From Flectonema sp. DT1601 (Eukaryota): a stretch of DNA of 64,000 bases. The stretch lies in the NCBI GenBank assembly GCA_964019425.1, contig OZ025790.1, forward strand, positions 1,426,001 through 1,490,000, written 5' to 3'. This document shows, piece by piece, positions 1 through 62,759 of the stretch. Below the pieces are notes generated by a model. The model saw only the letters and a list, made by a program, of their open reading frames with translations. It was not told the DNA's origin and did no database searches. The position numbers and the translations under genes are program-made. Numbering within the stretch: the first letter of the stretch is position 1; the number at the start of each line of letters is the position of its first letter.

Positions 1-877
1 ATATTTTAATTTAGCCCTCAAAAGTATAACTACATTTGGTACCTTTTTTAAATTAAGAAGGTTAAACGCGATGAGTAGGACAGAGGTTTGGAAAAAATAT
101 TTATATTAATTGATGTCACGTAGTCTCCTGCTGCTGTACTTGGACAAGGTGGAAAGTTATCTCTTGATGTAGTATGCCCCCCCCACTGTGCTGAAACTAA
201 TAAAATAATCCTCTACGGGATTACGTTCATCTTCCTATCGCAGTATTGTAGACCTCTTTGAGTAGTCTACCAATACTACGGGTGGTCTGATGGACTTGCT
301 AACTAGTTATTTATTAATTTTGTAATGACTTCTCTAAAATGTCAACCGAAAAACGGAATGTGACTTCTGCTTGTTTTGATTGGCATCTTGTCACACTCAT
401 ATAGTCTTTCCTCCGGGTTTCGGTGGCGTCTTTTTTTTTTTTTTTTTTTTGCACTTAACAAGTATTGTAAGAACGAAAAAAGAATGTTGGGCAGCACACG
501 TAAACCTCCTTTAGCTTTATCAGTTTAAAGTCGGTTCACGAGGTGCACAAGCAACAGATCCCTCCTCAATCCATACCACCCCCAAAAAAAAGAAAAAAAA
601 AAAAACGATCGCTGTATTTTATTGTCTTAATCTTGTACCCCCCCATATTTGGTATTTTTTTTCCCCATCGGATGTGATGTGTGTTAATTATTATTTTTGT
701 TCCTTCCCTCAGCATCTTCGACAGCACGTATGGGACTTTAGCAACTGTTCTCTCTTTTCATTGTAACTAAGTTTGGCCGAACCCTATATTCCGGTTTAAG
801 TTACTTTATATTTCATCGCGATATCAAATAGATTATAATGTCTCCCCCCGCAGTTAAATTCCCCCCCTCAATGCTCA

Positions 878-19817: not shown

Positions 19818-19885
19818 GGGATCACGACACCTGCCTCCTCGCGGCGGTCCCGGACGACTTCGATAGGGGTCGACAAGACGGTGTC
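19818..19885 (+). ncRNA. HDV-like self-cleaving ribozyme at the element 5' end
   Basis: P1 GGGATC/GGTCCC, P2 GACACC/GGTGTC, P3 GCC/GGC, L3 TCCTCGC, P1.1 CC/GG, P4 CGACTTC/GGGGTCG, J4/2 ACAAG with candidate catalytic C19874. The first G coincides with the TSD boundary. Confidence 0.85.
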
Positions 19886-20092
19886 AAAGACAAGAGATGC
19901 CAACACCATCAACACCAACTACCACATCCAGGGCATCCGTACCCTGGATGTTTTTTATCAAAAAAAGAACGGAACAAGCTAGCCCACGCCTTGAATGGCA
20001 ATGGTGGAACAAGAAAGAACAGCAGAGACCGTCGCCCCCGAGACGATACTCGCGACAGGGACGAAGACCGCCCAAACAAGGAAGAACGTCGG

Positions 20093-22804: not shown

Positions 22805-22888
22805 CCGGCGGAGGACGGAAGGAACTGGGCGGAGACACGGAGACGTCTCCTGCTACAAGCTGGCGACGTTGAGAGGAACCCCGGACCG
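22805..22888 (+). other. 2A-like StopGo peptide (LLLQAGDVERNPGP) directly after the in-frame ORF1 UGA
   Basis: Matches the D(V/I)ExNPGP consensus; in frame with both ORF1 and the APE domain; no ATG. Confidence 0.9.
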
Positions 22889-25800
22889 AGACCACGAATC
22901 GATGGGCTCACCGTGGGAACAATCAATGTCACCACACTAGAAGGAAAAATAGATGCCATCACAGATCTGAACCTAGATCTGATAGCTCTACAGGAAACTT
23001 CTCTGACGGGCCCACAGCAACGCCAGATGAAAAAACAGCTCGGTGAGAGAGGATGGGAAACGACGTTCGGATTAGAGTGCAAATTACTAACCGATGGGCA
23101 AAAGACGTGGACGGCGGCAGGAGGCGTGGCCATCTTGACGCGCACTGGTACACCGGTGAGAAGGATAAAACACGATCGGCTCGACAACACGGGACGATTC
23201 GTACACGCGGGAGTGTCGTACGGAAATGGCAAGGTACTGCACGTTTTCTCGTTCTACGGAGACGTACGTTCGGCGGTCTACACGGAAGAGTTGATTGCGG
23301 AGATGCTCGTGGAAGCAGCAGCTCTGGGTGATGTTCCCGTATTTATAGCGGGGGACTTCAACGTCGAAACAACGGAATCGCCGGCGCTTCTGTCGGCTTT
23401 CGCACACGGACTCTGGATAGATGCCGCCGTCTCGATGGGAAACATGACACCGACAAGCGAAGCGGGAAAAGGACTTCGTAGAATCGATGCTATTCTGATG
23501 AACCGCGGGGCGGCGACAGCAATCTCGAATGACACAACGATTCATGTGCATAAGAGTGAGCTGATCCCGACACACAAGCCGGTCATCATTAGAAAGCTCA
23601 ACATCTCACGCTACAACGAGAAGGCTCCTAGGCTGATAGTACCGAAACAGTTGGATACCTCCGAGACAACGGACCCGAGTGAGGGGAAGGCCGAAAGGCA
23701 ACTCCACTGGACGCGAGCTGTAGCGACGGAAGATCCTGACAAGATGCTGGAGGCGCTTGGAGAGATCATCGAAAGATACCTTCTGACGGGAAAGCTGGAG
23801 ATAAGTAACCCAGCCAAGTACAAGGGACGCGGGAAGAAGCGTGAGCCTGTGATGTGGACGAACGCGGCGAAACAAGACGGGAGAGGAGCGACGTGCAGGG
23901 AAACGCGAAGAAGACTGCAGAAGATACGTGTTCTGGAGGAAGTGATGAAAATCACAAAGCAACGCGATGGTCCGACGGTGCCGTCCCACGAAGTAATGAA
24001 ACTCTGGAAAAAATTACGAAAACTCGATCCGACGACGGGATCCGAAATACCACAGACGGAGGAGCTTCGGATACTACTACACAAGCGAGACAGGAGCAAG
24101 CGATAGAAAGCAAGAAGCTCCGAACTGAACGCATCCGCATGTGGAAACGGAATGTTGTCGACAATTGGAACGACGACCGCACGAAGGTTTTCCAGTGGAT
24201 CAGGAACGTCGAGCAATCGAAGACTGTTCTGATGGAAAAGGCAGATGGAAGCTGGACGGCCAACTGCTCCGAGATGGATGAGGCCATGCACGCGGCATGG
24301 GACCCCATACTCAAAAAGTACTTATCAGACCCGGAACCAGACTGGATGAAGTTCGAAGAACGGTACAGCAACTACATCGAGGAACACCCGATGCGATGCG
24401 AAGATATCACCGGGGAGGACGTTGCAAAAGCCCTCAGAAGAACTAGCTCGCGCAAAGCAGCTGGGGTAGACGGCTTCAGGATATCGGAGCTCAAGTCGCT
24501 ACCGGAGGACATGATTCAGATGATAGCGGAATTCTACAACATAGTGGAGAGAACACACTGGCCGGAAGCACTTCTCACGGCACTGGTGTCGGCCATACCC
24601 AAAGGGGCAGGGACGAAACCACTGGAGCAGAGACCCATTACGGTGACATCCGCACTTTACAGACTATGGGGCTGTATACGTATGGAAAAGGATGTAATGG
24701 AGTGGCAAGAGAAGTGGGCTCACGACGGGCAGTACGGCTACCGGAAGGGGAGATCTACGCTCGACCTCAGCTGGAAGATAGCACTAGACGTGGAACACGC
24801 AACTCTCTACGGAGAAGAGATTGCTGGAGTGACCACGGACTTCAGGAAGTGTTTCGACCTGATCCCGCACGACATCCTCCTGAAATTGGTGAAGGAATTG
24901 GGCCTCGGTGATGAGATCCTGAGAACTGTGACGGATGTCTACCGGCGACTCAGAAGGAGATTCAAGTTCCCGAGCGGCGTCGGAGAAGAATTTGCCACCA
25001 CCAACGGAATACTGCAAGGATGTCCGCTCAGCGTGGTGCTCTTCAATGCGCTGAGCTCGATACTCAGCAAAGCAATCGAGAGGGAAGCCGATGTGACGCC
25101 CGGATCGTATGCGGACGACCTGACGTTGTTTGGATCACGAACGAAGCTACAAGAAGGCGTAGAAGTCGTTGCGGAGTTCTGCACCCTGACCGGACAAGAA
25201 CTCGCACCTCAGAAGTGCAAGTGGTTCTCGAACAGAGACCAGGGCCAGACCAACATCACAATGGGGGACACAACACTGGACTTCGATGACAGTGTCGATA
25301 TCGTGGGATGCCACCTCAGTATGAAAGGAACCACCAAGCAGATTGGGAGGATCACGGAAGAAGTGCTCGATAGAGCGAGGCGAATCCGGTTACTTCCGCT
25401 CAGATATCAAGCGAAGGAACAGATAGCTGCAGCTAGTGTCATGCCCAAGGCGCTCTTCGGAACGGCACTGTACGATCCCGATGCGACGCGACTCGGACTG
25501 CTGAGAAGAGCAATGGCAACGGGGATTTTCCGCAAACTTGGAGGGAAAAGAACTAAGATGTCGCACACCATGGGCCTAACGCTACTCTGCAAGGGACATT
25601 GTGTGGATCCCGCGACGTACATTAGGTACAACAGACTCCTTGCACTCACCAGAATGCTACCGAAGCTAACTGAGAGGATACGCAGGGTATGGGAACACCT
25701 GCAAGAGCACACTGAAGCGACGAGAGGACCAGTCGGCCTCGCCCTGAGTACTCTGAAGGAACTTGGATGGGAATGGTCAACTTTCTCGGTCTTCGAAGGT

Positions 25801-27540
25801 CCGGGAGGGACGACCGAACACGGAAGGCTGGATGCGGGGCGCTGGCGGCACGATGTCAGAGAGGCGTGCAGACGTTTCACCTGGAACAAAACAATTGCGG
25901 AAACGAGACGGGTAAACCTGAGAGGTATTGAAGCGGGCATCGACCGGAAAGAGACCCTGAAGGTCCTGAAGGAAGGAAAGGGCGACCCCTACCTGCGCGG
26001 AGTAGTGAAGCACTGCCTCCTGGACAACGTGTACACTGGCTCGATGAAGGCGGGAAACAAGAACTGCGCGCACTGCGAGGAGGTTGACGACGTAGAGAGG
26101 ACGGAGACCCTCGAGCACGTGAACTGGGATTGCAGAGCTTATGACACAATCCGACAGGAATACCCGCAAGTGATGCTACAAGTTCGAAGCGATTGGCCCA
26201 ATTGCCTGAGGCTACTCGGCATCAAGCCCGACAATGTGGAACTGCCGGCGGGGCTCACCGGAGACCTACAACGAATGTTCGCACGGATCAGGCTCCGCAG
26301 GGACGACTACCAACAACTGGAGGAAAGACGGCTGACGGTTGTGGAATACGCTGGGAACAAGGAACCGGAAGTGGTTATGCGATACAACAACAAACTGGAA
26401 AAGTACATGCCAGTATACACCCAATGGCCCGAAGCCCTTGGATTGACCTTGTACTTGGCGCTTGCGAGCTACCTGAGGGAACTGAAGTGGCCTCGACAGC
26501 CAGACGGAGTCGGAGTCACCTTCCTGGAATTAGCGATCGACTTCGAAGCGTATGCGGGGGTTGACATACCGACCACAGTCCACGAAGGCCACGTAGCGAA
26601 GTGCACCAAAGACAGAGCCGCCGGGAAGAAAGCTGACGTCATGTGTGGACTGATGCTAAGATTGAACTTGGTTCACAAGCATTTAGAAGGCGAGGAACAA
26701 AGAACCTTTCCCGACTACTGCGTAGGAAGCAACAAAGCCTTACGTCCGCTAGGAGCCCCGGTACTGAAAGGTTTGAAGAAACGACCAGCTTTTCTGATGG
26801 GAGACGAAACAGTAGACACAATTCGGAGGACGGTCCAAGAGGCGAACGACGGAAAAGCTGACAAAATCAGATTCGGCTTCGAGACTGAGTGCAGGCACTC
26901 GAGCGAGAGGGAAGGGAGAGCGGAGAAATGGATAACCGCGGCACGACTTTTCCCATCAAAGGAAAAAGACGTACAGCTGAGGAGGGAGCTCTGCGAGCGA
27001 GGACCGACACGCCCGCCACCCGAGGTCGTCAAGAGACCGGGCATCGCGGAAGGACAAGGAACGATGAACTCGACGTGCTACGGACACTTCAAGAAAAAAT
27101 GCAATAGTTGTCGACGGGCCGGAAACACCATCTACCAGTGCTGCCACAACCATCACACTCTGGGGGATGAAGATGGACAAATACCGATATGGGACTTTTG
27201 CAGCAAGCACAAGCTTACTCCATGTGCAGTCTGCATAGTTATCGGCAGAGGATCTGAGCAATGTTGCAGAAACAGCCACCACCGATGCCGTCACCACGAG
27301 ATGGCTCCCTGCAACGACTGCAAGCGGAATCCGGATCCGGAACAACGGACTGCCACGAAATGCTGCAACAAAAAGCATCACGGGCCAATTATAAGGACGT
27401 TGACGAGGAGGGCGAAGCAGCCGACGAAGCATGATATGCAAACCAGCACATCTCTTCTAAAATTAGGTTTCACCAAACAAATGAAACCGAAAGCAGAGGA
27501 AACCCCGGAAAGGGAACCACAGGACAAGGGGTTAACTTAG
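22805..27540 (+). CDS. Retrotransposon A1 ORF2 (APE, RT, CCHC, Cys/His repeats) with one frameshift near 24080
   Basis: APE: TINVTTL, ALQET, AGDFN, RIDAIL, THKPV. RT: QRPITV, DFRKCFD, GILQGCPLS, YADD. CCHC: CAHC...EHVNWDC. The APE ORF stops at 24106 and RT continues in another frame. Confidence 0.9.
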
Positions 27541-28739
27541 GTTGGCCGAACCAGTGCCTCGTCATCTCACCGTGCTAGCAAGCCTGAATGACAGCACTCA
27601 AAATGGTACATATATCGTTGTTCACGAATCACTTCTCTTGACCTTTCAAGTCTTAGTGATGTAAAGGAAATTGGTAGAAAACCCCTCGTTAGCTGCAGCT
27701 CCCTAAAATCTGTTCAGCTGCCTAAAAATAATGGCGCTATCTTTGAGAGGGTTATGAAATTTGAAAATTTAAATGTAAAGTGTTGAACCGATTCTTGGTT
27801 GTCATTTTTTCTTCTTCTTTTTTTTTTTTTTTTTTTACTTTTTTTTTAAAGTATCACAAAAGAGCTTTAACAACGACAGATTGCTCTGAAGTTGCTCCAG
27901 AAACACCTTCCAGTTGATCATCTTGAATTCCATCCTAAATAGATGAACACTCTATTAAGGGATTTGGTTATTTGAGTGTTCGGACATCATAGTTTTTAGA
28001 GAGGAGCTTCATGTGTGACCGACACAACCTGAAACTTAAAAGGTAACCGGTAGGATGTGTTGTAGCATTTGTGATGAGAATATTCTACACAAAACAACTT
28101 TTAATCTCACATTCCGATATAGTCAAAGAGAATGTGATCATGATGTTTGTTTTGTGATTATTTATATGTTCCCGCATGTGGTGCCTCAGTTTTTCAAGAT
28201 CAATGCAAAAGAACTTATCACTCGCAGCTTAGTCTTGCGAAATATGCTACAAGTTTGCTACGAACGGAGAAATATTTCATTTTGATTATTTTTTGAAAAA
28301 TAATTTTCGAAAATAGTTTTTCTAATATTTATTTTATTCAAAGTGTGTAAAGAAGTACTAAGTCTTTTTTAATTTTCCTTTAATATTTATTTGCTTTTGA
28401 AGTGTGAGAGAATACTATTTTAAGCTGCAACAGACTACAGGGCATGGTAGTACGTGTCCCCCGAACCCCATATTCGACAGCACATATGGAATTTTTATTG
28501 ATACCAATTGCAACGAGGTTGGCCGAACCCTATTCTTGTTTTAGCCAGTTTCAAGTTGCTTTCAATTTAATATTAGTATCAAGTTACTCCCCACTGCTAA
28601 TAATGGGGGAGCCTCAGTCTGATTGTTTAGGGAGGACTCCTTAGCCTCCCAAGGATTTTGTTATGTTTACTGAAAGAGAAATTGATGCGAATAATTGCAA
28701 TGCAGGAAGGGTGGGGAGAAAGTACATAACACTTAAAGT

Positions 28740-29300: not shown

Positions 29301-29797
29301 TCTCATCATTTTTAACCAGGGGGGGGAAAAAAAAACCTTTTCTCGTTTGTTTTTTTTTTAAATAACGGGACTCAGATAAAAAAAAAAAAAAAAAAAAAAA
29401 CTAACTAACCTTTTTTTTTTAATTTTTTTATCCTAATCTGAAAAATTAGTTCTGAACTTTAACGGGGATGTCAACACGATGTCGCTATGCTGTAATTGAT
29501 TGTTCTAGTTGGTATTGTTAGTCTTTCTTTTTTTTTTTGAAAGAAAGAAAGAGAGAGAGAGAGAGAGAAGGAAACATTATTTTTTTTCAAAAAAAAAGAA
29601 AGAATAAAAACTCAGGTACTTGTTATTTTAATCTGTAGTATTGTACTTACTGTTGTTCTTAGGTCACTAATTACAAAACAATGATGGTTTTTTTTTTTTT
29701 TTTAATTCCTTGTCTTGTTCGAAAAATAACTACGAGACGCAACATTAACTTCATTCATACTATCAGTTATTTATTATATTTATTAAAAAAAATAAAA

Positions 29798-30925
29798 ATG
29801 GTTCACTTTCACATTAGAGGAGAAACAAAGCCTGCAGAGAGAAGAACTGCAGTAACACCTGATGACGCAAAGAGACTTATTGAAGCTGGTCACCAAGTGA
29901 CGGTTGAAAGTTTTCCTGACAGATGTTTTCCCGACGCAGCATATGCTGAGGTGGGATGTGCAATGGCTGAAGCTGGATCATGGGAGAAGATCGATCAAAG
30001 TAGAGTAATCTTAGGACTGAAGGAATTACCTGAGGGAGACAGTGGACTACCACATCAGCATATCATGTTTGCTCACTGTTTCAAATACCAAGACGGATGG
30101 AAGGAAGTAATGAAGAGATTCACATCAGCAAAGGGAACCCTCTTCGACTTGGAGTTCCTCAAGGAAGAAAACGGTCGCAGAAAGGTGGCATTTGGTAAGT
30201 CTGCAGGATTTTGTGGAATGGGCACTGGAATCCTATGCTGGGCCCTCCAACAGCAAAGCGGCGACAAAATGACTCGCAACGCCCTACCAGCTGACCTTTG
30301 GTACCGCACCAGAGACGAATACATTAACGCCTGTGCTGACGCTATAAAGAAAACAGGAAAGGGATTTCCAAAGGTTATGATCATCGGAGCTCTTGGTAGG
30401 TGCGGATCGGGAGCCACTGAAATGGCTCTTGCGACGGGAATTCCAAAGGAAAACATCGCCATGTGGGACATGGCAGAGACTTCAAAGGGAGGACCTTTCA
30501 AAGAAATATTAGACTATGATGTTTTTGTTAATTGTATCTACTTGGACCCAAAAACTAAGGCTGCTCCATTCTTGACTACAGAAATGCTGAACAGCGATAG
30601 AAAGTTATCAGTCATGGTCGATGTCTCTTGTGATCCAAACAACCCAGCCAACCCTGTTCCTGTCTACAAGGAATGCACAACATTCTTAGAACCTGTTAAC
30701 CGAATTGTAGCCCCGAGTGAGGGAAAAGCTCCTTTCGATGTTATTGCCATTGATCACTTGCCTTCCCTTGTTCCTTGTGAGAGCAGTACAGAGTTCAGTG
30801 CAGGACTCCTTCCGATGTTAATCGACTTTGAGAAGGATAGTGAAAATGTTTGGTCTCGTGCCAAGAAAACTTTTGAAGAAATCGCCGCACTTCCAGAGAT
30901 GAAGGATCAGACAAGTCAGCTGTAG
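29798..30925 (+). CDS. LYS1: Saccharopine dehydrogenase (NAD+, L-lysine-forming), copy 1
   Basis: Motifs RGETKPAERR, ILGLKEL, FAHCFKYQ, DLEFL, IIGALGRCGSGA, DVSCDPNNP, IDHLPSL; ATG at 29798 by comparison with copy 2. Confidence 0.92.
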   Translation: MVHFHIRGETKPAERRTAVTPDDAKRLIEAGHQVTVESFPDRCFPDAAYAEVGCAMAEAGSWEKIDQSRVILGLKELPEGDSGLPHQHIMFAHCFKYQDGWKEVMKRFTSAKGTLFDLEFLKEENGRRKVAFGKSAGFCGMGTGILCWALQQQSGDKMTRNALPADLWYRTRDEYINACADAIKKTGKGFPKVMIIGALGRCGSGATEMALATGIPKENIAMWDMAETSKGGPFKEILDYDVFVNCIYLDPKTKAAPFLTTEMLNSDRKLSVMVDVSCDPNNPANPVPVYKECTTFLEPVNRIVAPSEGKAPFDVIAIDHLPSLVPCESSTEFSAGLLPMLIDFEKDSENVWSRAKKTFEEIAALPEMKDQTSQL

Positions 30926-32146
30926 GCTTTGGGGTGTTGATGGGAAGAAAGGAAAGAAATTGTCAAATCCCCCAAATGGAAAATGTCGCACCCCCCATAA
31001 GGTGATCATTCTCCCAGTGGGGTAAAAAAAAAAAAAAAAAGAAAGAAAAAAAAAAAAGAGCAATCTTCCTGTCTACAAAAGCATGCATGTTCACATTAAA
31101 AAGGAGTTTTTCGCAACTCTGGGAACACACACAGTAGTAGACTACATCATTTTCAGAGTTCAGTTTGTTTTTACCTTTTTCTTTTTCTTTTTCTTTTTTT
31201 TTTTTTGCCTCCACTCAAAACTCCAATTGCATGTGGTACAAAGAGATCGGAGAGATTTGGAAGAAGAAAAAACAACAGAATTCTGTTTGCGGTTCCTATG
31301 AGATGGAAATTTCGTTCTTTTTTTTTGCTTGTAAGTTATCAGTGCTCGTAGATATATCGGTCCCCTTTAAAATATTAGGATACATCGTTTTTTGGGATGA
31401 ACAGGAATAAAAGAAAACAAAAAATAAAAGAAACAACTTTGACTACTAAAGTGATAAAAGACTACTCACTCTCGTTGTGTATTTCTTCATTTGGCTCGCG
31501 CGCAGAATGTGTAAAATATTCGCGACGGCTTTATTAATTTCGGGAGTTGATTCGCTGTGTGTTTTTTTTTTGCTGAAAGAAAAAAAAAAACGAAGGAAAA
31601 AAAAAAGAAAAACACCCCTCTTACTCCCATTTTTAATTTTTTTTTTGTTGTCGTTGTTGTTGTTGTCTTTTGTTCCATTGCTTCGGTAGTCAAATAAAGT
31701 AAGTTTAAGCAATTAAACATGAAAAAAAATTAAATTAAATTCTTATTTTTTTCACTTCAAGGAATAAATGACCAGACCACTAGACGGTCCTTTCGTAAAT
31801 CAGTTTTCACATCCGTCAGCGACAGACGAATGCTGTGTTTCCGTCATGCGGAAGAATTACAGAACGAACTGTCACTGATGTGGTGAAACGGGTGGGACGA
31901 AATGTCTCAAGACCCAACTAGGCAACGACGAAACCACCCAAGCCAGGTGGTTGCCTGAGGCATCCCAGGAATGGGTGTGTCCTACAAAACATCAACAAGT
32001 GTTATATTACTATTTTCTGTATAGTTTAAGATAAAGCCAATTCTTTTTTTTAATTCCTTGTCTTGTTCGAAAAAAATAACTACGAGACGCAACATTAACT
32101 TCATTCATACTATCAGTTATTTATTATATTTATTAAAAAAATAAAA

Positions 32147-33274
32147 ATGGTTCACTTTCACATTAGAGGAGAAACAAAGCCTGCAGAGAGAAGAACTGCG
32201 GTAACACCTGATGACGCAAAGAGACTTATTGAAGCTGGTCACCAAGTGACGGTTGAAAGTTTTCCTGACAGATGTTTTCCCGACGCAGCATATGCTGAGG
32301 TGGGATGTGCAATGGCTGAAGCTGGATCATGGGAGAAGATCGATCAAAGTAGAGTAATCTTAGGACTGAAGGAATTACCTGAGGGAGACAGTGGACTACC
32401 ACATCAGCATATCATGTTTGCTCACTGTTTCAAATACCAAGACGGATGGAAGGAAGTAATGAAGAGATTCACATCAGCAAAGGGAACCCTCTTCGACATA
32501 GAATTCCTCAAGGAAGAAAACGGTCGCAGAAAGGTGGCATTTGGTAAGTGGGCAGGATTTTGTGGAATGGGCACTGGAATCCTATGCTGGGCCCTCCAAC
32601 AGCAAAGCGGCGACAAAATGACTCGCAACGCCCTACCAGCTGACCTTTGGTACCGCACTAGAGACGAATACATTAACGCCTGTGCTGACGCTATAAAGAA
32701 AACAGGAAAGGGATTTCCAAAGGTTATGATCATCGGAGCTCTTGGTAGGTGCGGATCGGGAGCCACTGAAATGGCTCTTGCGACGGGAATTCCAAAGGAA
32801 AACATCGCCATGTGGGACATGGCAGAGACTTCAAAGGGAGGACCTTTCAAAGAAATATTAGACTATGATGTTTTTGTTAGTTGTATCTACTTGGACCCAA
32901 AAACTAAGGCTGCTCCATTCTTGACTACAGAAATGCTGAACAGCGATAGAAAGTTATCAGTCATGGTCGATGTCTCTTGTGATCCAAACAACCCAGCCAA
33001 CCCTGTTCCTGTCTACAAGGAATGCACAACATTCTTAGAACCTGTTAACCGAATTGTAGCCCCGAGTGAGGGAAAAGCTCCTTTCGATGTTATTGCCCTT
33101 GATCACTTTCCTTCCCTTGTTCCTTGTGAGAGCAGTACAGAGTTCAGTGCAGGACTCCTTCCGATGTTAATCGACTTTGAGAAGGATAGTGAAAATGTTT
33201 GGTCTCGTGCTAAGAAAACTTTTGAAGAAATCGCCGCACTTCCAGAGATGAAGGATCAGACAAGTCAGCTGTAG
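32147..33274 (+). CDS. LYS1: Saccharopine dehydrogenase, tandem copy 2 (5 amino-acid differences)
   Basis: Near-identical to copy 1, including the 5' flank and much of the 3' flank. Confidence 0.9.
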   Translation: MVHFHIRGETKPAERRTAVTPDDAKRLIEAGHQVTVESFPDRCFPDAAYAEVGCAMAEAGSWEKIDQSRVILGLKELPEGDSGLPHQHIMFAHCFKYQDGWKEVMKRFTSAKGTLFDIEFLKEENGRRKVAFGKWAGFCGMGTGILCWALQQQSGDKMTRNALPADLWYRTRDEYINACADAIKKTGKGFPKVMIIGALGRCGSGATEMALATGIPKENIAMWDMAETSKGGPFKEILDYDVFVSCIYLDPKTKAAPFLTTEMLNSDRKLSVMVDVSCDPNNPANPVPVYKECTTFLEPVNRIVAPSEGKAPFDVIALDHFPSLVPCESSTEFSAGLLPMLIDFEKDSENVWSRAKKTFEEIAALPEMKDQTSQL

Positions 33275-52279: not shown

Positions 52280-52353
52280 TACCCCATGTGAGACTCGAAC
52301 TCACAACCTTTGGATTAGAAGTCCAACGCGCTATCCAATTGCGCCAATGGGGC
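52280..52353 (-). tRNA. tRNA-Arg(TCT)
   Basis: Reverse complement GCCCCATTGGCGCAATTGGATAGCGCGTTGGACTTCTAATCCAAAGGTTGTGAGTTCGAGTCTCACATGGGGTA folds as a cloverleaf with anticodon arm TTGGA-CTTCTAA-TCCAA. Confidence 0.95.
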
Positions 52354-52369
52354 TCTGTTTACCAACGAT

Positions 52370-52372
<3 letters not shown>

Positions 52373-52403
<31 letters not shown>

Positions 52404-53503
52404 GTTACACTCGTCTGTGCTACCAAACTCTTTGTTTATGTTCTTTTCACTTCTATGTTTTGTCTTTCTTTTATACTTTCTTTTTGACTTAAGTCTGACA
52501 AATTGGAAAACACGGGAAACATAGGTAGGCTCCGCCTGAGGACGTAAGAAGAGCGGCAACGGAAAAAATAAATGGTCACGCGTCCTTGAGATTGGACACA
52601 CGAAGCTAATTCGGTTACCATTCCTACCATCGATAAGGAAAACAAAGAATCGAGCATATAACTAGAGCGGTGGTCAAAGACCACTTGAACAGCCCGAAGG
52701 CCTGCCCTCAAGAGAAATTAATAAGGAGAATAGGAGAAGAAGGAGAAAGGAGTATTGGAAGGGACACTGAGACAACACCGAAGGTGATGTGCAGTTACCC
52801 AACCAGGAGATGATTGATAATGATGAACATACTAAAAATAATAACAAATTGATATTGGCGACTGCATGTCACCTACTTTACTTCCAAAGTCTAAGGTTAG
52901 ATGTTTGTTCCATCCACCTTATGATCAACGCGAGTGATGGAAGCCACGCCAAAGTGAAGAGAGCTTCAAGGTTAGGAATTTCGTTGGCAATAATAAGTTC
53001 TCGATCGCGATCCCACTTGCCGGTCAGTGTTGAGAAGCCCAGGATTTTGAACCTGGCAGAGTCGAGTTTGGGAGATTGACATCCCTGCAGCAGGTGAACC
53101 TGTGAGGACGGTTCGCCACAAAATGGGCAGTCGATTTTCTTGCGCCAGTTCTGAATTAGCGGGTGACATCCTGTCCGGAAGTTCGCTATCCGTATCTCGT
53201 CGGCTCTTTCCATCCCAGGAGGGTATTTAACGGAACGGCCTCCGATGAGGTGTTTGTAGCAGGTGTAACCACTCACGTTAAGCAGATCCTTTTTGATGCA
53301 GCGCTTAACATGTGATGATCGCGAGAAGTAAGTGCCTTTGACTAGCACAGGTCGGATGTTCTTGTTGTGCGCTGCTTCCTTTGCAAGCGCGTCAACTTCA
53401 TCGTGAAACTCGATTCCAATGTGCGAGGGGATGAATTGCAAATGCACTTTCATTTCACACATGCGCAGGTATTCTAGTATCTTGAGGGACTCAGTATTCC
53501 TCT
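52373..53503 (-). mobile_element. 5'-truncated LINE copy (element B1): end of RNase H, CCHC, 3' UTR, poly(A)
   Basis: Near-identical to 59612-60714; T-run at ~52372-52402; flanked by 9-bp duplication AACGATTCT at 52364-52372 and 53504-53512. Confidence 0.9.
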
Positions 53504-53554
53504 AACGATTCTAAAGCTACAGTTTCTGTACTTTATTGTTTCTGTACTTTATTG
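53504..53554 (+). other. Retroposed spliced-leader exon followed by a second partial SL relic
   Basis: AACGATTCTAAAGCTACAGTTTCTGTACTTTATTG then TTTCTGTACTTTATTG; the 3' half matches the conserved kinetoplastid/diplonemid SL exon; no GT donor follows. Confidence 0.9.
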
Positions 53555-53577
53555 ATTTACAAAAAAAAAAATAAAAA

Positions 53578-54942
53578 ATGTCCGGAACACAAGAATCGAT
53601 GGTCGTGCAGCAACAAGAGCAAGCACAGCAATCAATGATGCAACAGCAGCAAGCACAGCAATTAATGGCACAGCAACAGCAGGCACAACACTTAATGATG
53701 CAACAACAGCAGCCGCAACAGCCAACACAAAGCCAGCCGGTACAACAACAAGCGCAGAACAATTCCAACAATTGCTTTTTACATGGCAACTGGACGCTTG
53801 AGACTTTAAGTCAGTCGCAAACTCACCTTCCCAACAATGTCCCACCAATCTCCCCCTTTTCGTTTATGAGCTCACCAATGATAGCGTTTAAACAGTATCT
53901 CAGAATAACAAATCTGTATTTTAAAACAATAAACATTTTAAGTTTAAAAGAAATGCACTTCACAGTTTCAAAAGACAATGTTGTAAACGTTTTTTCTTGT
54001 TTATTGGAAATCAAAAAAGAATGTGCAGCTGATTTCTTAGAAATATCCGGCCAACACGGCATTTTCTTTTCCGAACACAAAAGCACTCAACACCTCTCCT
54101 CCTACTACACAATTGTGTGGACCCCTGACACACCTTACACCCAGCTTAAAAAGATAGCAATCGATCTCAATAAAGACCCAAAAAACAAAGGAGCCCTCGG
54201 GCTCACAATGTACCAAGGAAGAAGCCTTGGGATACGAATTAAAAAAGAATCAGAAACAAACTTTCGTTCAAATTTTGGAGTAAAATGTCCGACTTATTTC
54301 GAGATAAGCGGCATAAGCAAAGAGAACGCAACGTCATTTGACGTTGAATTTTTTTTTGATTTAATGAAAAAAAAAATTAAGTACTGTTATAAAAAAAAAA
54401 GGGAAGAGTCACATGTTGTGAGCTCGTACGAGAATCTGCAGTCTTGCGGATCAGTAATCGTTAAAAAAATAACTCAACCCTCAAAAGATGAAAGAAGAAT
54501 TGAAAAGAACTCAATAGAAACGAAAACAGACCAAACTGAAAAAAAAGATATTAACGAAAAAGGAAAAGGAAAAGGAAAAGGGAAAGGGAAAAAAGGAAAG
54601 AAAGGAACTAAGGGAGAGAGCGGTAAAGGAAAAAAAACTGTTTTGTCATCACCGTCAACCTCAGTAACCCCGTCAATAGAACAAACGGACATTTTAAACC
54701 AGCTAAAATTATTGTTAGATGCACAAACAAAGCATCTAACAACAAAGATCATTGGCACTTTTCTAGCCGATGATCCGAAAAAGCAAGCAGAAGCTTGGGA
54801 TGCGGAAATAAACCCGCAAGAAAAAGAAGGTTTTCTACAAGGATCGATGGACGATGACATCGATCTTGTGAAACAGAAGCTGGACAAAGAAAACGATGGT
54901 GATGACAACACAAAAAGAAAAAAAGAAGAACCTCCGAATTGA
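53578..54942 (+). CDS. Retrotransposon A2 ORF1 (poly-Q N-terminus, conserved central domain, KG repeats)
   Basis: 454-aa ORF starting 24 nt after the SL relics; motif-level similarity to A1 ORF1; ends AAT-TGA. Confidence 0.85.
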   Translation: MSGTQESMVVQQQEQAQQSMMQQQQAQQLMAQQQQAQHLMMQQQQPQQPTQSQPVQQQAQNNSNNCFLHGNWTLETLSQSQTHLPNNVPPISPFSFMSSPMIAFKQYLRITNLYFKTINILSLKEMHFTVSKDNVVNVFSCLLEIKKECAADFLEISGQHGIFFSEHKSTQHLSSYYTIVWTPDTPYTQLKKIAIDLNKDPKNKGALGLTMYQGRSLGIRIKKESETNFRSNFGVKCPTYFEISGISKENATSFDVEFFFDLMKKKIKYCYKKKREESHVVSSYENLQSCGSVIVKKITQPSKDERRIEKNSIETKTDQTEKKDINEKGKGKGKGKGKKGKKGTKGESGKGKKTVLSSPSTSVTPSIEQTDILNQLKLLLDAQTKHLTTKIIGTFLADDPKKQAEAWDAEINPQEKEGFLQGSMDDDIDLVKQKLDKENDGDDNTKRKKEEPPN

Positions 54943-57900
54943 CTGTTTCCTTATAATTTATATCTTTTTTATTTCTCGAACCTTCTTTTGTGTGGAGACA
55001 TCCACCCGAACCCCGGTCCACAAAAAAAGCAAAAAAACAGTGAGCTGAGAATTGTATCTTTTATTGTTTGTGGTCTCAAGTCGAAATCCGACGAAATAAC
55101 TTTTTTTTTACAAAATATAAAACCTGACCTATTCATGGTTCAGGAAACATTGTTAAAGGATAACGACGAAACCATTAATTTTAATGGGTACAAGTGTCTC
55201 AGAAGAGACCGGAGAATTCCGGTAAAAAAAAACGCACCCGTCAGAGGTGGTGGATTGGCAATTTTTTACAAAAACAGCCTAAGCGTGACAGCATTCGCTG
55301 TTGCACAACACAGCCAAGACTGCACTGAAGTCCAGGGCATTTTTGTGTCAAATTCAAAACAAACTGTAAGGGTATACAACGTGTACAGACCACCGGTAAG
55401 CCAATCAACCTCTGATAGGTCCCCCTCTTTTGATATGAATAGTATTTTTCTTTTTAATAAAAATGATAAAGTAGTTATCGCGGGGGATCTTAACGCAAGG
55501 CATCCACTCTGGGACCCGAGAGACGAGTCAAACACAAATGGCCATGAAGTCTCGACTTTTCTAAACAATAACCAGTTTGAATGCTGCAACGTTAAGGAAA
55601 TCCCCACAAGACCAAAATCAAACACTTCTCCTGATGTTGTTCTCCAAAAAAACTGTGATATTGGCAACTGGACGACGCTCGAATCTCTATCAAGCGATCA
55701 TGTACCAATGTATTTTTCTCTTTCTTTTTTTTCGGATTCGATAAACAGAGCGAACGGTGCAACGGTTTTTTCTTATAATTGGAACAGGGCACTGTGGCCA
55801 AACTACAGCTCCCACCTCGAAAGGGTGGCGAAGCGACTTGAAAAGATTCAAGATAACCAGAAATTATCAATGGAATTCATAAGAGAATTAAAAAATGCGT
55901 TACGGATCTTTGTACCAAGGATTTATTTGAAAGGAAAGTCACCAAAGAAGTGGTGGAACACGACGGTTGCATCTAAGTTTCATGAGTTCAACGAGTCACA
56001 TTGTGACCAACGGGATGATCTTACAGATCTGTCGCAACAGGGAAAGTCAATTTTTACATCTTTAAAAAAAGAACTCAAAAAAACAGTCGTTGATGCCAAG
56101 AATCAACAGTTTAAAAAAAGCCTTAAAAAAGACAAGTCTATTATTGAAGCTTTTGAAGACATAAGAGGCCTTGATGGAAGATCAAGACTTAAAGAAATTC
56201 GAGAAATCACCTGTGGTGATAAACTTGTTACAGATGATGTGGAAAAAGCATCAATTTTCAATAATCAATTTTTACAACGTGTTGGTAACATCAAAGAAAA
56301 AACAAAGACAAAGAAAATAGAAACAGACCCTTCTGATTTTACACCATTTACACAACATGAACTTAGAATCCAATTGAGAGGAATGGCTCTGGAAAAGAAT
56401 TCACCAGATGGCGTTCAAGGTATTCTTCTTAACCATTTGGGACCTAGAATGCTAAACATTTTACTTAAGATTTTTAACAATTCGTGGAAACATTCTGTTG
56501 TCCCGAGTGATTGGAAAGACACACACTGGATCCCTGTTTTAAAAAAAGGAAAACCCCCAAACCTCCCCTCTTCATATAGAATGATCTCTCTCACCCCTTT
56601 TATTGCGAAATTGATGGAAAGAATGGTGAAGGAACGTCTTACGTATTTTATGCAATCACCGAATGAAAAGAAAACTGACGGTATTGGTTTCAACCAAACT
56701 TCTTATCGGAAAACGCGTTCTTGCCGGGAAAACATCCTATATGTTACGGACAGACTTAGATTTCTTAAACACCAAAAAAAGTCAGCGGCCCTTGTTCTTC
56801 TTGATATCGAAAAAGCTTTTGATAGTGTGAACCATGATCTTCTCCTTCAAAGGATGGTAGATCTTGGAATACCAAAACATTTTATAGCCTGGATTCAGGC
56901 CTTTCTTAAAAAACGAAGAGCAGCGGTTGTTGTTAATAATGAAAAAGGTTCTTACCACAATGTTTATTCTGGCGTTCCACAAGGAACAGTTTTGTCGGCT
57001 CTACTTTTTACTCTGTATATTGAAAAAGTCGCAGAAAGACTAGATATTACGGTTGCTAAGTATGCGGATGATATTGCTTTTGTAGTTGATGATGAAGGGA
57101 AAGGTTTTACTTATCATTTGGCAAAAACGAAATATTTCTTTAATGAGATTGAAAAGGATCTAAACGAATTAAAATTAAAAGTAAGTTATGAGCCTGACAA
57201 AACAAAACTTGTGTATTATCCCTACTCCCCAAATTCCCCACTACAAACACCTTTCACTTTTACTTCAAATTTAACAAAAAATATTGTTCCATGTGTTGAT
57301 AGCGCCAAGCTTCTTGGGGTGATCCTTGATAACAAGCTCGATTGGAAACAGCATATCTCGTACATTTGTAGAAGAGTTAATCTTCGCTTAAGGTATCTGA
57401 AGCTTGTCGCATCAAAAGCATGGGGACAGTGTACTGCAACTTTGCGTGAGGTGTATGATTTGTATATTCGACCTGTCATAACAAACTCGTGTGAAGCTTT
57501 TTATCCTGAAGTTAGGTATAAAAAGATTCACATGGACAGGCTTCTCTCTTTACACCTTAGGGGTGCGTGCTATGTCTTAGGTGCCTTACCACCAACAAGG
57601 GAAACAAGAGATAAGATCTTTTTTGAGGCACAACAACAAAGTATCAACACCCATTTGAGACTTGAAACTGGTAGATGGTTCGCCAAAATGGCGCGAATCA
57701 CGTCCCCTTTATTAAATGTCTTTATTCCACCTGAAAGAATATCCTCAACACCCATTGATTCTTTTACTCGTTTAGGAATGAATGTTCTGAAAGAACACAA
57801 CCTTCTATCACTCAGTTTTGAGAAATATCCCATTTACGTTCATCCTCCATGGAGTTTTTCAAATGATTTCAATGTTTTTAAACCAGAAATGCATGTTAGA

Positions 57901-58887
57901 AAAAAAAAAGACAAAAAGAAAAATAAAAAAGCCTGTGAAGCTGTTCTTAATGAAATAAGGAAAGATTATGAACCAGTCTTAGAGGTATATACCGATGGTG
58001 CCGTTGTTGAAGAACGCGGTGCTGCGGGTGTGTACATCATAGACAGCGAAGGAAATGAATTTCTCACAAACAAAAGTGAAGCAGGAATAATCTGCACCTC
58101 TTTTAGGGCTGAAATGATGGCGATCAAAAACGCTTTTGTTTTACTTTTTAAGGAATTTAAACCGCCGGAAAATGCGTCAGTTTTATTTGTGTCAGACTCC
58201 TCCAGTGCCTTGATGGAACTGGAAAAAGGGGGAACAAAACAGAAAACGAGACTAGGAAGCCGCATCTGGCAGTTTATTGAATTTTTCAACAATAAATTCA
58301 AAACAAAGTTTATTTTCCAGCATGTCTTTTCTCACTGTGGTATTGTCGGAAACGAAGAAGCAGACAAACTAGCCCAAAACATTTCATTAAAAAAAGATGA
58401 AGAAACCCTTTTAAAACAAAAAAAAGTTCCCATAGACTACAGCACCCATGTAGCTAAACTAAAACACAGAATAAAAGAAAAATTTGACCCCCGTCCTTTC
58501 CCATCTGAAACTGAAAGAGCGGAAGAAATTCTGATTTCACAACTCAGAATTGGCGACTGTAAACAAACACAAGGGAAATGTCCTAGGTGCAGAGAAAAAG
58601 ACTCTGTAGAGCACCTGTTAGCAAAATGCTCAAAGTACAGAAAAGAGAGGAGGGTGTATCTCCAGAAAGACTCTCTAACACAAGAAGAGTTAAAGGATTG
58701 TCTTTCCACTGTACAAGGACTAGAGAATGTTTTTCTTTTTATGTCATCTGCAAGAAGATATGTATTTCCAGAAAAAGAAAAGAAAAAAGAAAATTTGAGT
58801 CAGGAAACAAAGAAAGAAAATGAAGAAAACGTTATCCTTCAACCCACACTTTTCAATACTGTGATTCAAAACTCACAACTGACTTGA
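54943..58887 (+). CDS. Retrotransposon A2 ORF2: 2A-like peptide, APE, RT, RNase H, CCHC (in frame with ORF1, no ATG before 2A)
   Basis: LLLCGDIHPNPGP; APE MVQET, YRPP, AGDLNARH, SSDHVP; RT LDIEKAFDSV, GVPQGTVLS, YADD; RNase H YTDGA, FRAEM, VSDS, HCGIVGNEEAD; CPRC...EHLLAKC. Confidence 0.92.
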   Translation: MFPYNLYLFYFSNLLLCGDIHPNPGPQKKQKNSELRIVSFIVCGLKSKSDEITFFLQNIKPDLFMVQETLLKDNDETINFNGYKCLRRDRRIPVKKNAPVRGGGLAIFYKNSLSVTAFAVAQHSQDCTEVQGIFVSNSKQTVRVYNVYRPPVSQSTSDRSPSFDMNSIFLFNKNDKVVIAGDLNARHPLWDPRDESNTNGHEVSTFLNNNQFECCNVKEIPTRPKSNTSPDVVLQKNCDIGNWTTLESLSSDHVPMYFSLSFFSDSINRANGATVFSYNWNRALWPNYSSHLERVAKRLEKIQDNQKLSMEFIRELKNALRIFVPRIYLKGKSPKKWWNTTVASKFHEFNESHCDQRDDLTDLSQQGKSIFTSLKKELKKTVVDAKNQQFKKSLKKDKSIIEAFEDIRGLDGRSRLKEIREITCGDKLVTDDVEKASIFNNQFLQRVGNIKEKTKTKKIETDPSDFTPFTQHELRIQLRGMALEKNSPDGVQGILLNHLGPRMLNILLKIFNNSWKHSVVPSDWKDTHWIPVLKKGKPPNLPSSYRMISLTPFIAKLMERMVKERLTYFMQSPNEKKTDGIGFNQTSYRKTRSCRENILYVTDRLRFLKHQKKSAALVLLDIEKAFDSVNHDLLLQRMVDLGIPKHFIAWIQAFLKKRRAAVVVNNEKGSYHNVYSGVPQGTVLSALLFTLYIEKVAERLDITVAKYADDIAFVVDDEGKGFTYHLAKTKYFFNEIEKDLNELKLKVSYEPDKTKLVYYPYSPNSPLQTPFTFTSNLTKNIVPCVDSAKLLGVILDNKLDWKQHISYICRRVNLRLRYLKLVASKAWGQCTATLREVYDLYIRPVITNSCEAFYPEVRYKKIHMDRLLSLHLRGACYVLGALPPTRETRDKIFFEAQQQSINTHLRLETGRWFAKMARITSPLLNVFIPPERISSTPIDSFTRLGMNVLKEHNLLSLSFEKYPIYVHPPWSFSNDFNVFKPEMHVRKKKDKKKNKKACEAVLNEIRKDYEPVLEVYTDGAVVEERGAAGVYIIDSEGNEFLTNKSEAGIICTSFRAEMMAIKNAFVLLFKEFKPPENASVLFVSDSSSALMELEKGGTKQKTRLGSRIWQFIEFFNNKFKTKFIFQHVFSHCGIVGNEEADKLAQNISLKKDEETLLKQKKVPIDYSTHVAKLKHRIKEKFDPRPFPSETERAEEILISQLRIGDCKQTQGKCPRCREKDSVEHLLAKCSKYRKERRVYLQKDSLTQEELKDCLSTVQGLENVFLFMSSARRYVFPEKEKKKENLSQETKKENEENVILQPTLFNTVIQNSQLT

Positions 58888-59367
58888 TTTCTCAAGCTTC
58901 CAAATTAACCAAAGTAGCACCTACACCATGGGGATGGTCTGATTGTTGATTGACTGATAGGCCGATATAGATTGGACACAGATCGAGAGTTTTTGAGAGA
59001 TCTTAGATGAAAGTCCGCACCTTTCAGGCCATCCCCAAAAAGCACATAGCAGCTACAGCTATGTCAATTCAAATTGCGACGAGCTGCAACTTCGACATGA
59101 AGTTTTTCGTTATTGTTCTTACCTTCTCCACATATTTACATATGTGATAAGTATAAGTCATATCTTACGATTGACAATTCCTCCCCATAAATAAATTTCT
59201 TTTTATTATTTTATTTTACACCTGCCTTACTAACTTGGGGAGAAAGAAAGGAAGAACAATGGGCCTCTTATGAGGTGGGCAATTGCCCTGGACCCACATT
59301 AAATGTACGCGTGTTTTGCGTCAGCCCGTTGCTGTAGAAAAAGAAGAGACAGTTTCAGGTAGTAATG

Positions 59368-59408
<41 letters not shown>

Positions 59409-59611
59409 TTTTATTTATTTTATTTATTTAGTCACATCCCCCCTGTCTTTCTACTTTGTTTTTATTCTTTCTGAGCATACTCGCTCTTCTTATTTTTTAA
59501 CTAAGTAAATAAGCAACAACGAGTGCAACTGTTGTGAGTCCGTTGGAGGACTTCCCCGGATAGGAAGCTCACGACACTGTAAGTACAAAGCGAATATTTA
59601 TTTTTTATTTC

Positions 59612-62600
59612 TTTTTTTTTTTTTGGTTACACTCGTCTGTGCTACCAAACTCTCTGTTTTTGTTCTTTTCACTTCTATGTTTTGTCTTTCTTTTTGACTT
59701 AAGTCTGACAAATTGGAAAACACGGGAAACATAGGTAGGCTCCGCCTGAGGACGTAAGAAGAGCGGCAACGGAAAAATAAGTGGTCACGCGTCCTTGAAA
59801 TTGGACACATGAAGCTAATTCGGTTACCATTCCTACCATCGATAAGGAAAAAACAAAGAATCGAGCATATAACTAGAGCGGTGGTCAAAGACCACTTGAA
59901 CAGCCCGAAGGCCTGCCCTCAAGAGAAATTTATAAGGAGAATAGGAGAAGAAGGAGACAGGAGTGTTGGAAGAGACACTGCGACAACACCGAAGGTGGTG
60001 TGCAGTTACCCAACCAGGAGATGATTGATAATGATGAAAATACTAAAAATAATAACAAATTGATATTGGCGACTACATGTCACCTACTTTACTTCCAAAG
60101 TCTAAGGTTAGATGTTTGTTCCATCCACCTTATGATCAACGCGAGTGATGGAAGCCACGCCAAAGTGAAGAGAGCTTCAAGGTTAGGAATTTCGTTGGCA
60201 ATAATAAGTTCTCGATCGCGATCCCACTTGCCGGTCAGTGTTGAGAAGCCCAGGATTTTGAACCTGGCAGAGTCGAGTTTGGGAGATTGACATCCCTGCA
60301 GCAGGTGAACCTGTGAGGACGGTTCGCCACAAAATGGGCAGTCGATTTTCTTGCGCCAGTTCTGAATTAGCGGGTGACATCCTGTCCGGAAGTTCGCTAT
60401 CCGTATCTCGTCGGCTCTTTCCATCCCAGGAGGGTATTTAACGGAACGGCCTCCGATGAGGTGTTTGTAGCAGGTGTTACCACTCACGTTAAGCAGATCC
60501 TTTTTGATGCAGCGCTTAACATGTGATGATCGCGAGAAGTAAGTGCCTTTGACTAGCACAGGTCGGATGTTCTTGTTGTGCGCTGCTTCCTTTGCAAGCG
60601 CGTCAACTTCATCGTGAAACTCGATTCCAATGTGTGAGGGGATGAATTGCAAATGCACTTTCATTTCACACATGCGCAGGTATTCTAGTATCTTGAGGGA
60701 CTCAGTATTCCTCTGTCTGCACCTTCCACCCAGCAGTTCATCCAGAAGGGATTTTGAGTCCGTGAATAGCCTTACAGATCTCATTGAAGGATCTTTGCTA
60801 AACACTGTTCTCAGATGTCTAGCCGCGTTCTTCAGAGCATGTTGTTCAGCCCTGTAGCTGCAGTCAGCTTGATAAAGCCTAGACGCGTAAGCAGATCGAA
60901 GGCCGCTACGTGACTTGGCAATATGAGCCGCACCGGCCGCGCCGGAAGCAGAGTAGGAGCCATCGCAGTTGATTACCATGTCGACAGGAGGTAACGTTCC
61001 AATGTACGACATGAATTTTTCTTTGTCCACCGCAGGGTTCGCGGACTTCGGAAATCCGCAGCCGTTGCTAATCCTAAGGTTTGTCGGAGATACCCAGGGT
61101 TCCATCGAGTCAGGCTGCACAAGGCACTGGCTTTCACGCTGGCTGTCAATGCCAGGAAGGAGGCCAGCCCAGTAGCTTTGGGTTGAGGCGAGTCTGTTGG
61201 TACTAGGTATCCAAGTCATGGCTTTATACCTGTAGTACGCTATCTTGGTTTGCTTTTCAATCTGACGTTTAAAAGGAAGCATGTCCGCTTCCCACAGTAG
61301 AAGTTCTCTCGGTGTGCACCTGCTGCATCCAGTAACCAGCCTGGCAACCTTCCTCAGTTCGAAATCAATACTATCAACGCTGTTGCTTATCAACCAACCA
61401 AAGCTATCGAGCGCATAAGAGATTCTCGCAGTTACGTAAAGGTTCTTGACCATATTTAGCGTTTTGTAGTCAAGATCATACGGTTGAAGGCATTGAAGCA
61501 GAGATATTCCCTTTTTCAGTTCTTCATGAATCTTAGCCACCTGTTTGTGGAAAGTGAGTCTGTCGTCGATGTGAACTCCGAGGTATTTCACTGAGTCCAC
61601 GATTGGCAACAGAAATGCGGTTTTAAATCTGGCTTTCACCACCATCACGTTGTCTTCGAGAACAATATTCCGCAACATCACGTTGTCAAGTTCGTCTTGC
61701 GTTTTGATCGGAGTTCCATCAACCTCGAGAATAGTTTCGCCGCTTTGAAGCATGGGTCTAGAAGAGTTTAAGTTGATACTCTTTTCAATGTCACTATAGT
61801 CCATTTTGATAACGTTTTCCACAACAGATCTGGAAAATAGTAATTCGCGATTGCAGGTGTCGTTGAGAATCGTATCCTTCGTACGGACTTTCATCTTAAG
61901 AGCACAGGTCTTTGAGACCGACAGGGCCATGTCGTTGTCAGAACACCATTGATCCACTTTATCAAGTATTATTTGAGCATTTGAAAGAGCTTCTTCCATG
62001 TTATGTCCAGATACTACACATGCTGTATCATCCGCATACAGAGCAGACGTCGTTGTTTCTTTCTCCAGTTCCAAAATCTTGCAGAGGTCATCAACGTAGA
62101 TAAGATAGAGAAGAGGACCCAGGATCGATCCCTGTGGAACCCCCTTAGCCAGAGTACGGAATTCGCTAAGATAACCATTCGCTTCAACTCTAACCTTCCT
62201 GTTTGTAAGAAAGTCTGTGATCCATCTGATAATAACATTCGGAACACCCATCTTTACCAATTTTAATAAAAGTATCTTATGGTTGATCCTGTCAAACGCA
62301 GCAGTAAAATCAAACGATAAGAACACCGATCTCTTTCTCTTCATGTGCATCCTTACGACGGCATCTACCAAAACGGTGATCTGTTCGCAGGTATTTCTCC
62401 CCCTTCTGAAACCAGCCTGTAGTGGGCTGAGTGACGAATGTTTAGTGAGCCAGTGCATGAGTCGGTCATACACGAGCCTCTCCGCAAGTTTCCCAACAAC
62501 CGATGTGAGCGTAATGGGTCTGAAACTCTTCAGTTCATTCCGAGGTTTTCCAGCCTTGAACATAGGCTTGATTAAACCTTGTTTCCACTGGTACGGTACT

Positions 62601-62730
62601 TTTGAAGTCTTCCAGGAAGTGTTAATAATTCTCAAGAGGTATTCCACTGTTGCCGGAGTGAAGTTTTTGATCATCTCATTGTGAACTCCATCAGGTCCTG
62701 CAGCCTTGCGGGTCTTCAGTAAGTCTTCAG
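59612..62730 (-). mobile_element. 5'-truncated LINE copy (element B2): RT, RNase H, CCHC, 3' UTR, poly(A)
   Basis: ORF 60089-62674 extends upstream to KAAGPDGV; RT DFTAAFD, GVPQGSILGP, YVDD/YADD, KYLGV; RNase H NCDGS, FTDSKS, FIPSHIG; CPFC...VHLLQGC; imperfect T-rich flanking duplication. Confidence 0.9.
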
Positions 62731-62759
62731 TTATTTTTTTATTTTTTTTTTTTTATACT

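Follow-up and report, generated by a model that had tools for sequence, protein, structure and literature searches.

How a retrotransposon keeps a complete, translatable 5′ end after random insertion is a core question of retrotransposon biology. Internal promoters and self-cleaving ribozymes are the known ways in which randomly inserting LINEs achieve this, and trypanosome elements serve as the classic example of elements that avoid trans-splicing. The window (the whole 64-kb stretch of DNA analysed here) contains a LINE that opens with a spliced leader (SL), raising the question of whether a host leader can supply the 5′ end of an element and, as a preliminary description of the locus had proposed, renew it through recursive trans-splicing. 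If true, free-living euglenozoan elements would do the opposite of those of trypanosomes and rely on the host leader to set their 5′ end, cap it and build it anew, and genomic SL relics would both mark full-length insertions and count generations.

Structure of the LINE and its 5′ end

The LINE lies on the forward strand and begins with nt 2–12 of the SL exon (52361..52371), of which nt 5–12 fall within the first copy of a target duplication. Here the leader is interrupted by B1 (52372..53503, reverse strand), a 5′-truncated piece of another LINE whose poly-A tail appears as 31 T at 52372–52402 and whose body runs to 53503. Nine identical bases flank B1 as its target duplication (52364–52372 and 53504–53512), and its end was set at 53503 by a second B1 copy of 97% identity (59597–60714); the sister copy at 59597–62752 encodes a reverse transcriptase (RT). 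Beyond B1 the leader resumes with nt 5–39 of the SL exon (53504..53538, forward strand), including an internal CAG at 53520–53522, and is followed by an exact match to SL nt 24–39 (53539..53554, forward strand, 75% pyrimidine), a relic that begins with the SL base directly 3′ of that CAG. A 5′ UTR of 23 nt (53555..53577, forward strand), A-rich and without AG, precedes the ATG at 53578. With B1 set aside, the LINE opens with 38 nt of leader (SL nt 2–39) and the 16 nt of the relic (SL nt 24–39). The preliminary description had listed a 38-nt start, the adjoining SL part 3′ of the CAG, a short UTR and the ORF1 ATG, all of which are present, and had placed the SL-internal AG correctly at 53521–53522; the interval that it gave for the structure (53504..53577) does hold it but leaves the LINE 5′ end at 52361 outside.

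Because a later retroelement, B1, inserted into the SL with a target duplication, the SL of the LINE is genomic DNA. B1 splits SL nt 2–4 from the remainder of the leader and leaves the CAG whole, so that this LINE copy could still be spliced; there is no strong pyrimidine tract directly 5′ of the CAG, a point against the use of this CAG as an acceptor. The 16-mer of the relic occurs twice in the 64 kb at up to two mismatches, compared with 0.09 occurrences expected, and no further SL match of at least 13 nt was found in the window. The SL intron is absent from the LINE 5′ end, where relic and UTR occupy the 3′ side of the exon, and neither SL sequence nor SL intron was found 3′ of the LINE poly-A. 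Leader and relic of this family are known from one copy at the DNA level. B1 was also considered as an SL-targeting element and rejected as such, since its second copy lies outside SL sequence.

A divergent tRNA-Arg(TCT) gene (52280..52353, reverse strand) lies 7 bp from the first base of the LINE and belongs to the flank, not to the element. The segment 51375–52353 of the window holds a cluster of a U3-like snoRNA (below the gathering score), a U2 snRNA and tRNA-Arg, with the LINE at its edge, and the insertion of the LINE was possibly tRNA-directed.

Both ORFs of this LINE copy are intact. ORF1 (53578..54942, forward strand, 454 aa) has Met/Gln-rich N-terminal repeats and matches no Pfam family, and no ORF1 homologues were found outside its own cluster. 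ORF2 (54943..58887, forward strand, 1314 aa) is in frame with ORF1, separated from it by one TGA, and comprises AP endonuclease, RT and RNase H as well as what we take, from sequence patterns, to be a 2A-like motif and a C-terminal Cys/His knuckle. The 3′ UTR (58888..59404, forward strand) ends in a 37-nt poly-A tail (59368–59404). The candidate target duplication of the LINE is weak, comprising 4 bp only (52357–52360 and 59405–59408), and the element has the same orientation as the long host ORFs. Judged by an ORF2 cluster of 18 members, several of them nearly intact, and by ORF1 starting from its own ATG in three sequences on five contig records, the family is young and multi-copy; the number of Met/Gln repeats in ORF1 differs among copies. 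Outside the family, ORF2 has its nearest relative in a protein of Flectonema neradi (34% identity over 89%), which is the sister of the LINE ORF2 in an RT tree (SH-aLRT 98); this was a quick tree of 58 out of 74 rows without ingi or L1Tc, with an unresolved backbone and long branches for two of the loci described below (L008 and L015), and it supports only the pairing of the LINE with the Flectonema protein.

In both this LINE and a second LINE of the window (54940–55030 and 22802–22890, respectively), ORF1 ends in TGA followed by C, and an in-frame 2A-like motif precedes the endonuclease, an arrangement that would make stop read-through combined with ribosome skipping possible in both. The ORF1 stop codon is common to all four sequences of the ORF1 cluster.

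The leader, its host and tandem leaders in other contigs

The 38 nt of the LINE are identical to nt 2–39 of the 39-nt exon of an SL RNA gene (L076), in which a GT intron and a T tract come after the exon; this reference gene is a eukaryotic contig within a bacterial MAG. Exact copies of SL nt 6–39 are present in 27 of the 62 metagenome loci described below, these being transcript-like contigs of host genes, and the published “Euglenozoa 14” SL, as given in the portion of the source consulted, differs from the LINE leader at 2 of 38 positions (PMC3795323). By its identity to the exon of an SL RNA gene, the leader of the LINE is a genuine SL, in agreement with the preliminary description. The LINE 5′ end is not itself an SL RNA gene, as its exon is followed by relic and UTR; L075, L076 and L082 provide the contrast. 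The host calpain shares 61% identity with a D. papillatum protein compared with 36% with that of Bodo saltans, and on this comparison the host is a diplonemid. In D. papillatum, a 39-nt SL is found on essentially all mRNAs, which are cut from polycistronic RNA (excerpts of PMC10161547).

Metagenomes were scanned for two SL ends 0–30 bases apart, using a pattern that was built from the window locus and whose exact matching favours perfect relics; with a gap of 0 as the limit of the scan range, duplications of less than 16 nt could not appear. The scan returned 62 loci, of which 55 belong to one transcript-like contig series and seven do not; the tandem pattern gave 0 loci in viral contigs. The seven loci outside the series lie on seven different contigs, carry kinetoplastid-type SLs and without exception join at nt 24, like the LINE; one of them (L062) has a third unit, which begins at SL nt 18, directly 3′ of the other AG of the SL. 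The earlier proposal of a relic beginning directly 3′ of an SL-internal AG thus holds for the LINE and for 8 of 8 junctions in these seven euglenozoan loci, whereas at the 55 transcript-like loci it holds for 0 of 66 (Fisher p 7e-11). The latter junctions fall at SL nt 6, 7, 8, 19 and 30, often in repeated cycles at contig ends. Owing to their non-AG joins, contig-end cycles and host genes, the 55 loci (among L001–L061) were rejected as evidence of recycling; they are likely SL concatemers, library artefacts or assembly loops, which are mistakable for relics, and were used solely to support the identity of the SL and to provide a contrast.

SL and relic head an RT gene at three of the seven loci (L008, L015 and L038), whereas none of the first ORFs of the 55 transcript-like loci is an RT gene (p 0.0009). 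L008 and L015 are CRE-like and have a restriction-type endonuclease motif, and L038 encodes an RT with zf-RVT. As their RTs share about 24–26% identity at best with the LINE ORF2, they are, on this divergence, lineages separate from the LINE. No RT is present at the other four loci: the contig of L002 stops 125 nt downstream, and the ORFs of L012, L026 and L062 match no Pfam family. At these last three, SL and relic precede low-complexity ORFs, and L012 and L026, which are related, have about 60 nt in common 3′ of the relic; they possibly represent a non-autonomous or unknown mobile family. The CRE-like element of L015 (209–6286) has a 2026-aa frame with a ubiquitin-hydrolase (UCH) domain N-terminal to the RT. 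The element of L038 and the ORF of L077, both SL-headed, each lie directly 3′ of another RT element (43% identity in L038), which suggests nested or tandem insertion.

When genomes labelled as prokaryotic were scanned with 21 nt of the SL, nine contigs matched, comprising three SL RNA genes, two low-GC virus-like contigs and four nuclear-type copies. In L080, a nuclear-type single SL, an RT gene follows 15 nt downstream; in L077 the SL comes after a CRE-like element and heads an ORF that has a 2A-like motif; in L078 an RT ORF precedes the SL by 1.9 kb; and in L079 the SL has simply been duplicated in tandem, with 10 extra bases, before a repetitive ORF. An SL intron or similarity to the flanks of SL genes was absent in 11 of 11 SL-headed loci. 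Kinetoplastid mRNAs carry four modified cap bases (cap-4) at the SL 5′ end. The SL match of the kinetoplastid-type copies starts at nt 5–12 in all nine loci that are not cut by the contig end, never at nt 1–4, as would be expected if reverse transcription of mature RNA stalled at the cap-4 bases. The LINE leader reaches SL nt 2, so that no cap block is visible in the diplonemid host.

Several bacterial MAGs or genomes of the GTDB collection contain contaminating euglenozoan sequence, both SL gene arrays and nuclear contigs (L069–L082). One further candidate SL locus, L094, was rejected as a chance match.

Origin of the leader and its relic

We consider it probable that the LINE RNA was trans-spliced and fully reverse-transcribed twice, and that the second acceptor was the AG within the earlier integrated SL. 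A LINE copy, co-oriented with the host ORFs, would be transcribed by read-through of a host polycistronic unit, and SL trans-splicing would free a capped, monocistronic LINE RNA. Integration would then have kept 38 of the 39 SL bases without the SL intron, as is seen at the DNA level. The integrated SL would take over from the native acceptor, so that no AGs other than those of the SL would precede the ATG; in the next round the parent copy, now without a native acceptor, would have used the CAG of the SL itself, there being no AG between leader and ATG, to yield a full SL joined to nt 24–39. B1 inserted into the SL afterwards, as the DNA again shows.

The AG rule and the SL identity make two rounds likely, but the self-renewing 5′ end of the preliminary description goes further, to endless renewal, than one relic, the record of two rounds only, can show. 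Unchecked recursion should add 16 nt per generation and would build growing stacks, whereas a single relic is found in the LINE and in six of the seven loci. Stacks would stay short if a few single-SL master copies yielded most daughters, or if the pyrimidine-rich relic shifted splicing to a downstream AG. The next AG after the relic (53592) lies 7 bases before the in-frame Met8 of ORF1, and it is speculation that the variable Met/Gln repeats of ORF1 would tolerate N-terminal erosion by such downstream splicing.

The same arrangement could have come about by a single round of trans-splicing, the 16-mer being a local tandem duplication that arose at the 5′ junction through slippage of the RT or through repair. 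The 5′ junctions of LINE insertions are known to be error-prone, the tandem SL of L079 is just such a plain duplication with 10 extra bases, and the scan was blind to duplications of less than 16 nt; nevertheless, we regard slippage as unlikely, because all eight junctions elsewhere lie directly after one of the two AGs of the SL and none at the other allowed positions, and because the microhomology amounts to one base only. Exactly one relic, as in the LINE and six of the seven loci, would also result if mature SL-capped LINE RNA gained a second SL at its own CAG without a genomic intermediate. This re-splicing at the RNA level is quite improbable given that the 21 nt 5′ of the AG offer little space for a branch point and tract, and that 0 of 66 junctions in the transcript-like host loci use the CAG, although assemblies hide rare reads.

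Both the giant-virus contigs, in which a promoter motif precedes the same SL at a constant spacing, and the divergent tRNA gene 7 bp from the LINE would fit a hard-wired leader, that is, SL and relic captured once as a fixed 5′ end and transcribed in cis from an upstream promoter. We give this very little credence: a promoter upstream of a LINE cannot be carried along with the copy, the SL as well as the relic match exactly, and nt 1 is missing here and nt 1–4 or more in nine other loci, unlike in SL genes and most viral copies. A template jump, in which the RT finished the LINE 5′ end and then switched to an SL-bearing host RNA or a free SL exon, has an equally small chance of being correct. 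Non-LTR RTs such as that of R2 do switch templates, but neither joins exactly at SL nt 39 nor a relic starting after an AG are predicted by a jump, and the mere 23 nt between relic and ATG leave nothing upstream-like. SL concatemers do occur in transcript assemblies, as the 55 loci attest with their repeated cycles and joins away from AG, but at the LINE the SL is split by a retroelement of 1.1 kb whose target duplication is clean, and a tRNA gene adjoins in continuous genomic sequence, making an assembly artefact or cDNA chimera exceedingly improbable.

Beyond the two rounds of trans-splicing and reverse transcription that we favour for the LINE, a broader reading is possible, which we put forward tentatively and with some doubt. 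Borrowing of the host SL might be a general third route to a non-LTR 5′ end, the other two being internal promoters and HDV-like ribozymes, and might be used in Euglenozoa by three or more lineages unrelated to one another (AP-endonuclease/RNase H, CRE-like and Hero/NeSL-like). SL-supplied acceptors would replace promoter, ribozyme and native acceptor, relics would count generations, and the SL-gene targeting of CRE/SLACS may derive from this route.

Known systems, ribozymes and viral leaders

The SL-relic mechanism is already known from dinoflagellate retrogenes; the cargo here is a retrotransposon. According to the sections of the reports consulted, the relic of recycled dinoflagellate retrogenes begins where the new SL splices into the integrated SL (PMC12014239, PMC3942190), and 95% have one relic (PMC12014239). 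Like these DinoSL-DinoRL retrogenes, the LINE combines a genomic SL at its 5′ end with the same relic rule, and mostly one relic is seen in both systems; of the marks of retroposition, the LINE has a poly-A tail and the weak 4-bp candidate target duplication. The dinoflagellate retrogenes carry a host gene, whereas the cargo of the LINE is an autonomous retrotransposon with its own RT; the host is also different (Euglenozoa), as are the 39-nt SL and the acceptors after nt 23 and nt 17.

L1Tc carries a 2A-like motif. With ingi/L1Tc the LINE shares AP endonuclease, RT, RNase H and poly-A (partial text of PMC12278014), but it differs in its separate ORF1, its 23-nt UTR and an SL in place of the Pr77/HDV-like ribozyme, and since the Pr77 hallmark is absent the LINE was not assigned to this group. 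The RNA of L1Tc/ingi of trypanosomes is described, in the part of the source consulted, as unspliced and as starting at the 77-nt Pr77 promoter/HDV ribozyme (PMC1874656). As these elements have the nearest architecture, their unspliced RNA counts against the trans-splicing reading. CRE1/CRE2, SLACS, CZAR and NeSL-1 lie within SL RNA genes and have a restriction-like endonuclease (extracts of PMC12278014, PMC3636483 and PMC4640811). They and the LINE are alike non-LTR elements with SL sequence at the 5′ junction; the LINE, unlike them, has an AP endonuclease before the RT, no SL intron and no SL on the 3′ side. Because L008, L015 and L080 involve CRE-like elements, their SL could conceivably be of target-site origin. 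Neither SL-headed LINEs nor SL relics of diplonemids or kinetoplastids turned up in the literature searched, which included few subscription papers.

HDV-headed LINEs (R2, L1Tc) and the SL-headed LINE share the task of freeing the element RNA from a read-through transcript, which R2 and L1Tc accomplish by self-cleavage and the SL-headed LINE would accomplish by host trans-splicing. The preliminary description had anticipated the lack of a ribozyme, and neither a Pr77 nor an HDV-like ribozyme was detected at the LINE 5′ end, where the Rfam search gave no ribozyme at E ≤1; an HDV descriptor found no match there or at the 11 SL-headed loci, and the Rfam search of the seven nt-24 loci returned nothing at E ≤0.1. 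The second LINE of the window (19818–27616), which interrupts a leucine-rich-repeat gene, is flanked by a target duplication of 18 bp (19800 and 27617) and has no SL, matches the descriptor at its exact 5′ end (19818..19885, forward strand). This HDV-like fold is the sole match on both strands of the 64 kb, with 0 matches in 10 shuffles, and is a weak match to the Rfam HDV model (E 2.8). The second LINE appears to be of the ribozyme type, and with the SL-headed LINE as its neighbour, two 5′-end solutions appear to coexist in one genome.

Complete 39-nt euglenozoan SLs were also observed before genes in giant-virus contigs (L063–L067, L083–L093) and in low-GC MAG contigs (L068, L081); the SL of L081 is of the kinetoplastid type, and the SL-headed gene of L064 has a methyltransferase domain. 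The same SL as in the LINE occupies 11 distinct sites in giant-virus contigs, nine on one 238-kb contig and two on GVMAG contigs. At all 11 sites an AAAA(T)TGA motif, which we take to be the mimivirus-type early promoter motif, ends 18–19 nt before SL nt 1. Ten of the 11 sites have at most one mismatch over the 39 nt, and an ORF follows 32–64 nt downstream. These arrangements point to giant viruses that infect diplonemids and carry the leader of the host encoded in their own genes. In the part consulted, the report on the Bodo saltans virus assumes that this virus does not depend on SL trans-splicing (PMC5871332).

Elsewhere in the window, two tandem dehydrogenase-like genes with AlaDh/PNT domains (29663–33274) are 98% identical, and an ORF of 1576 aa with PT repeats extends over 839–5569.
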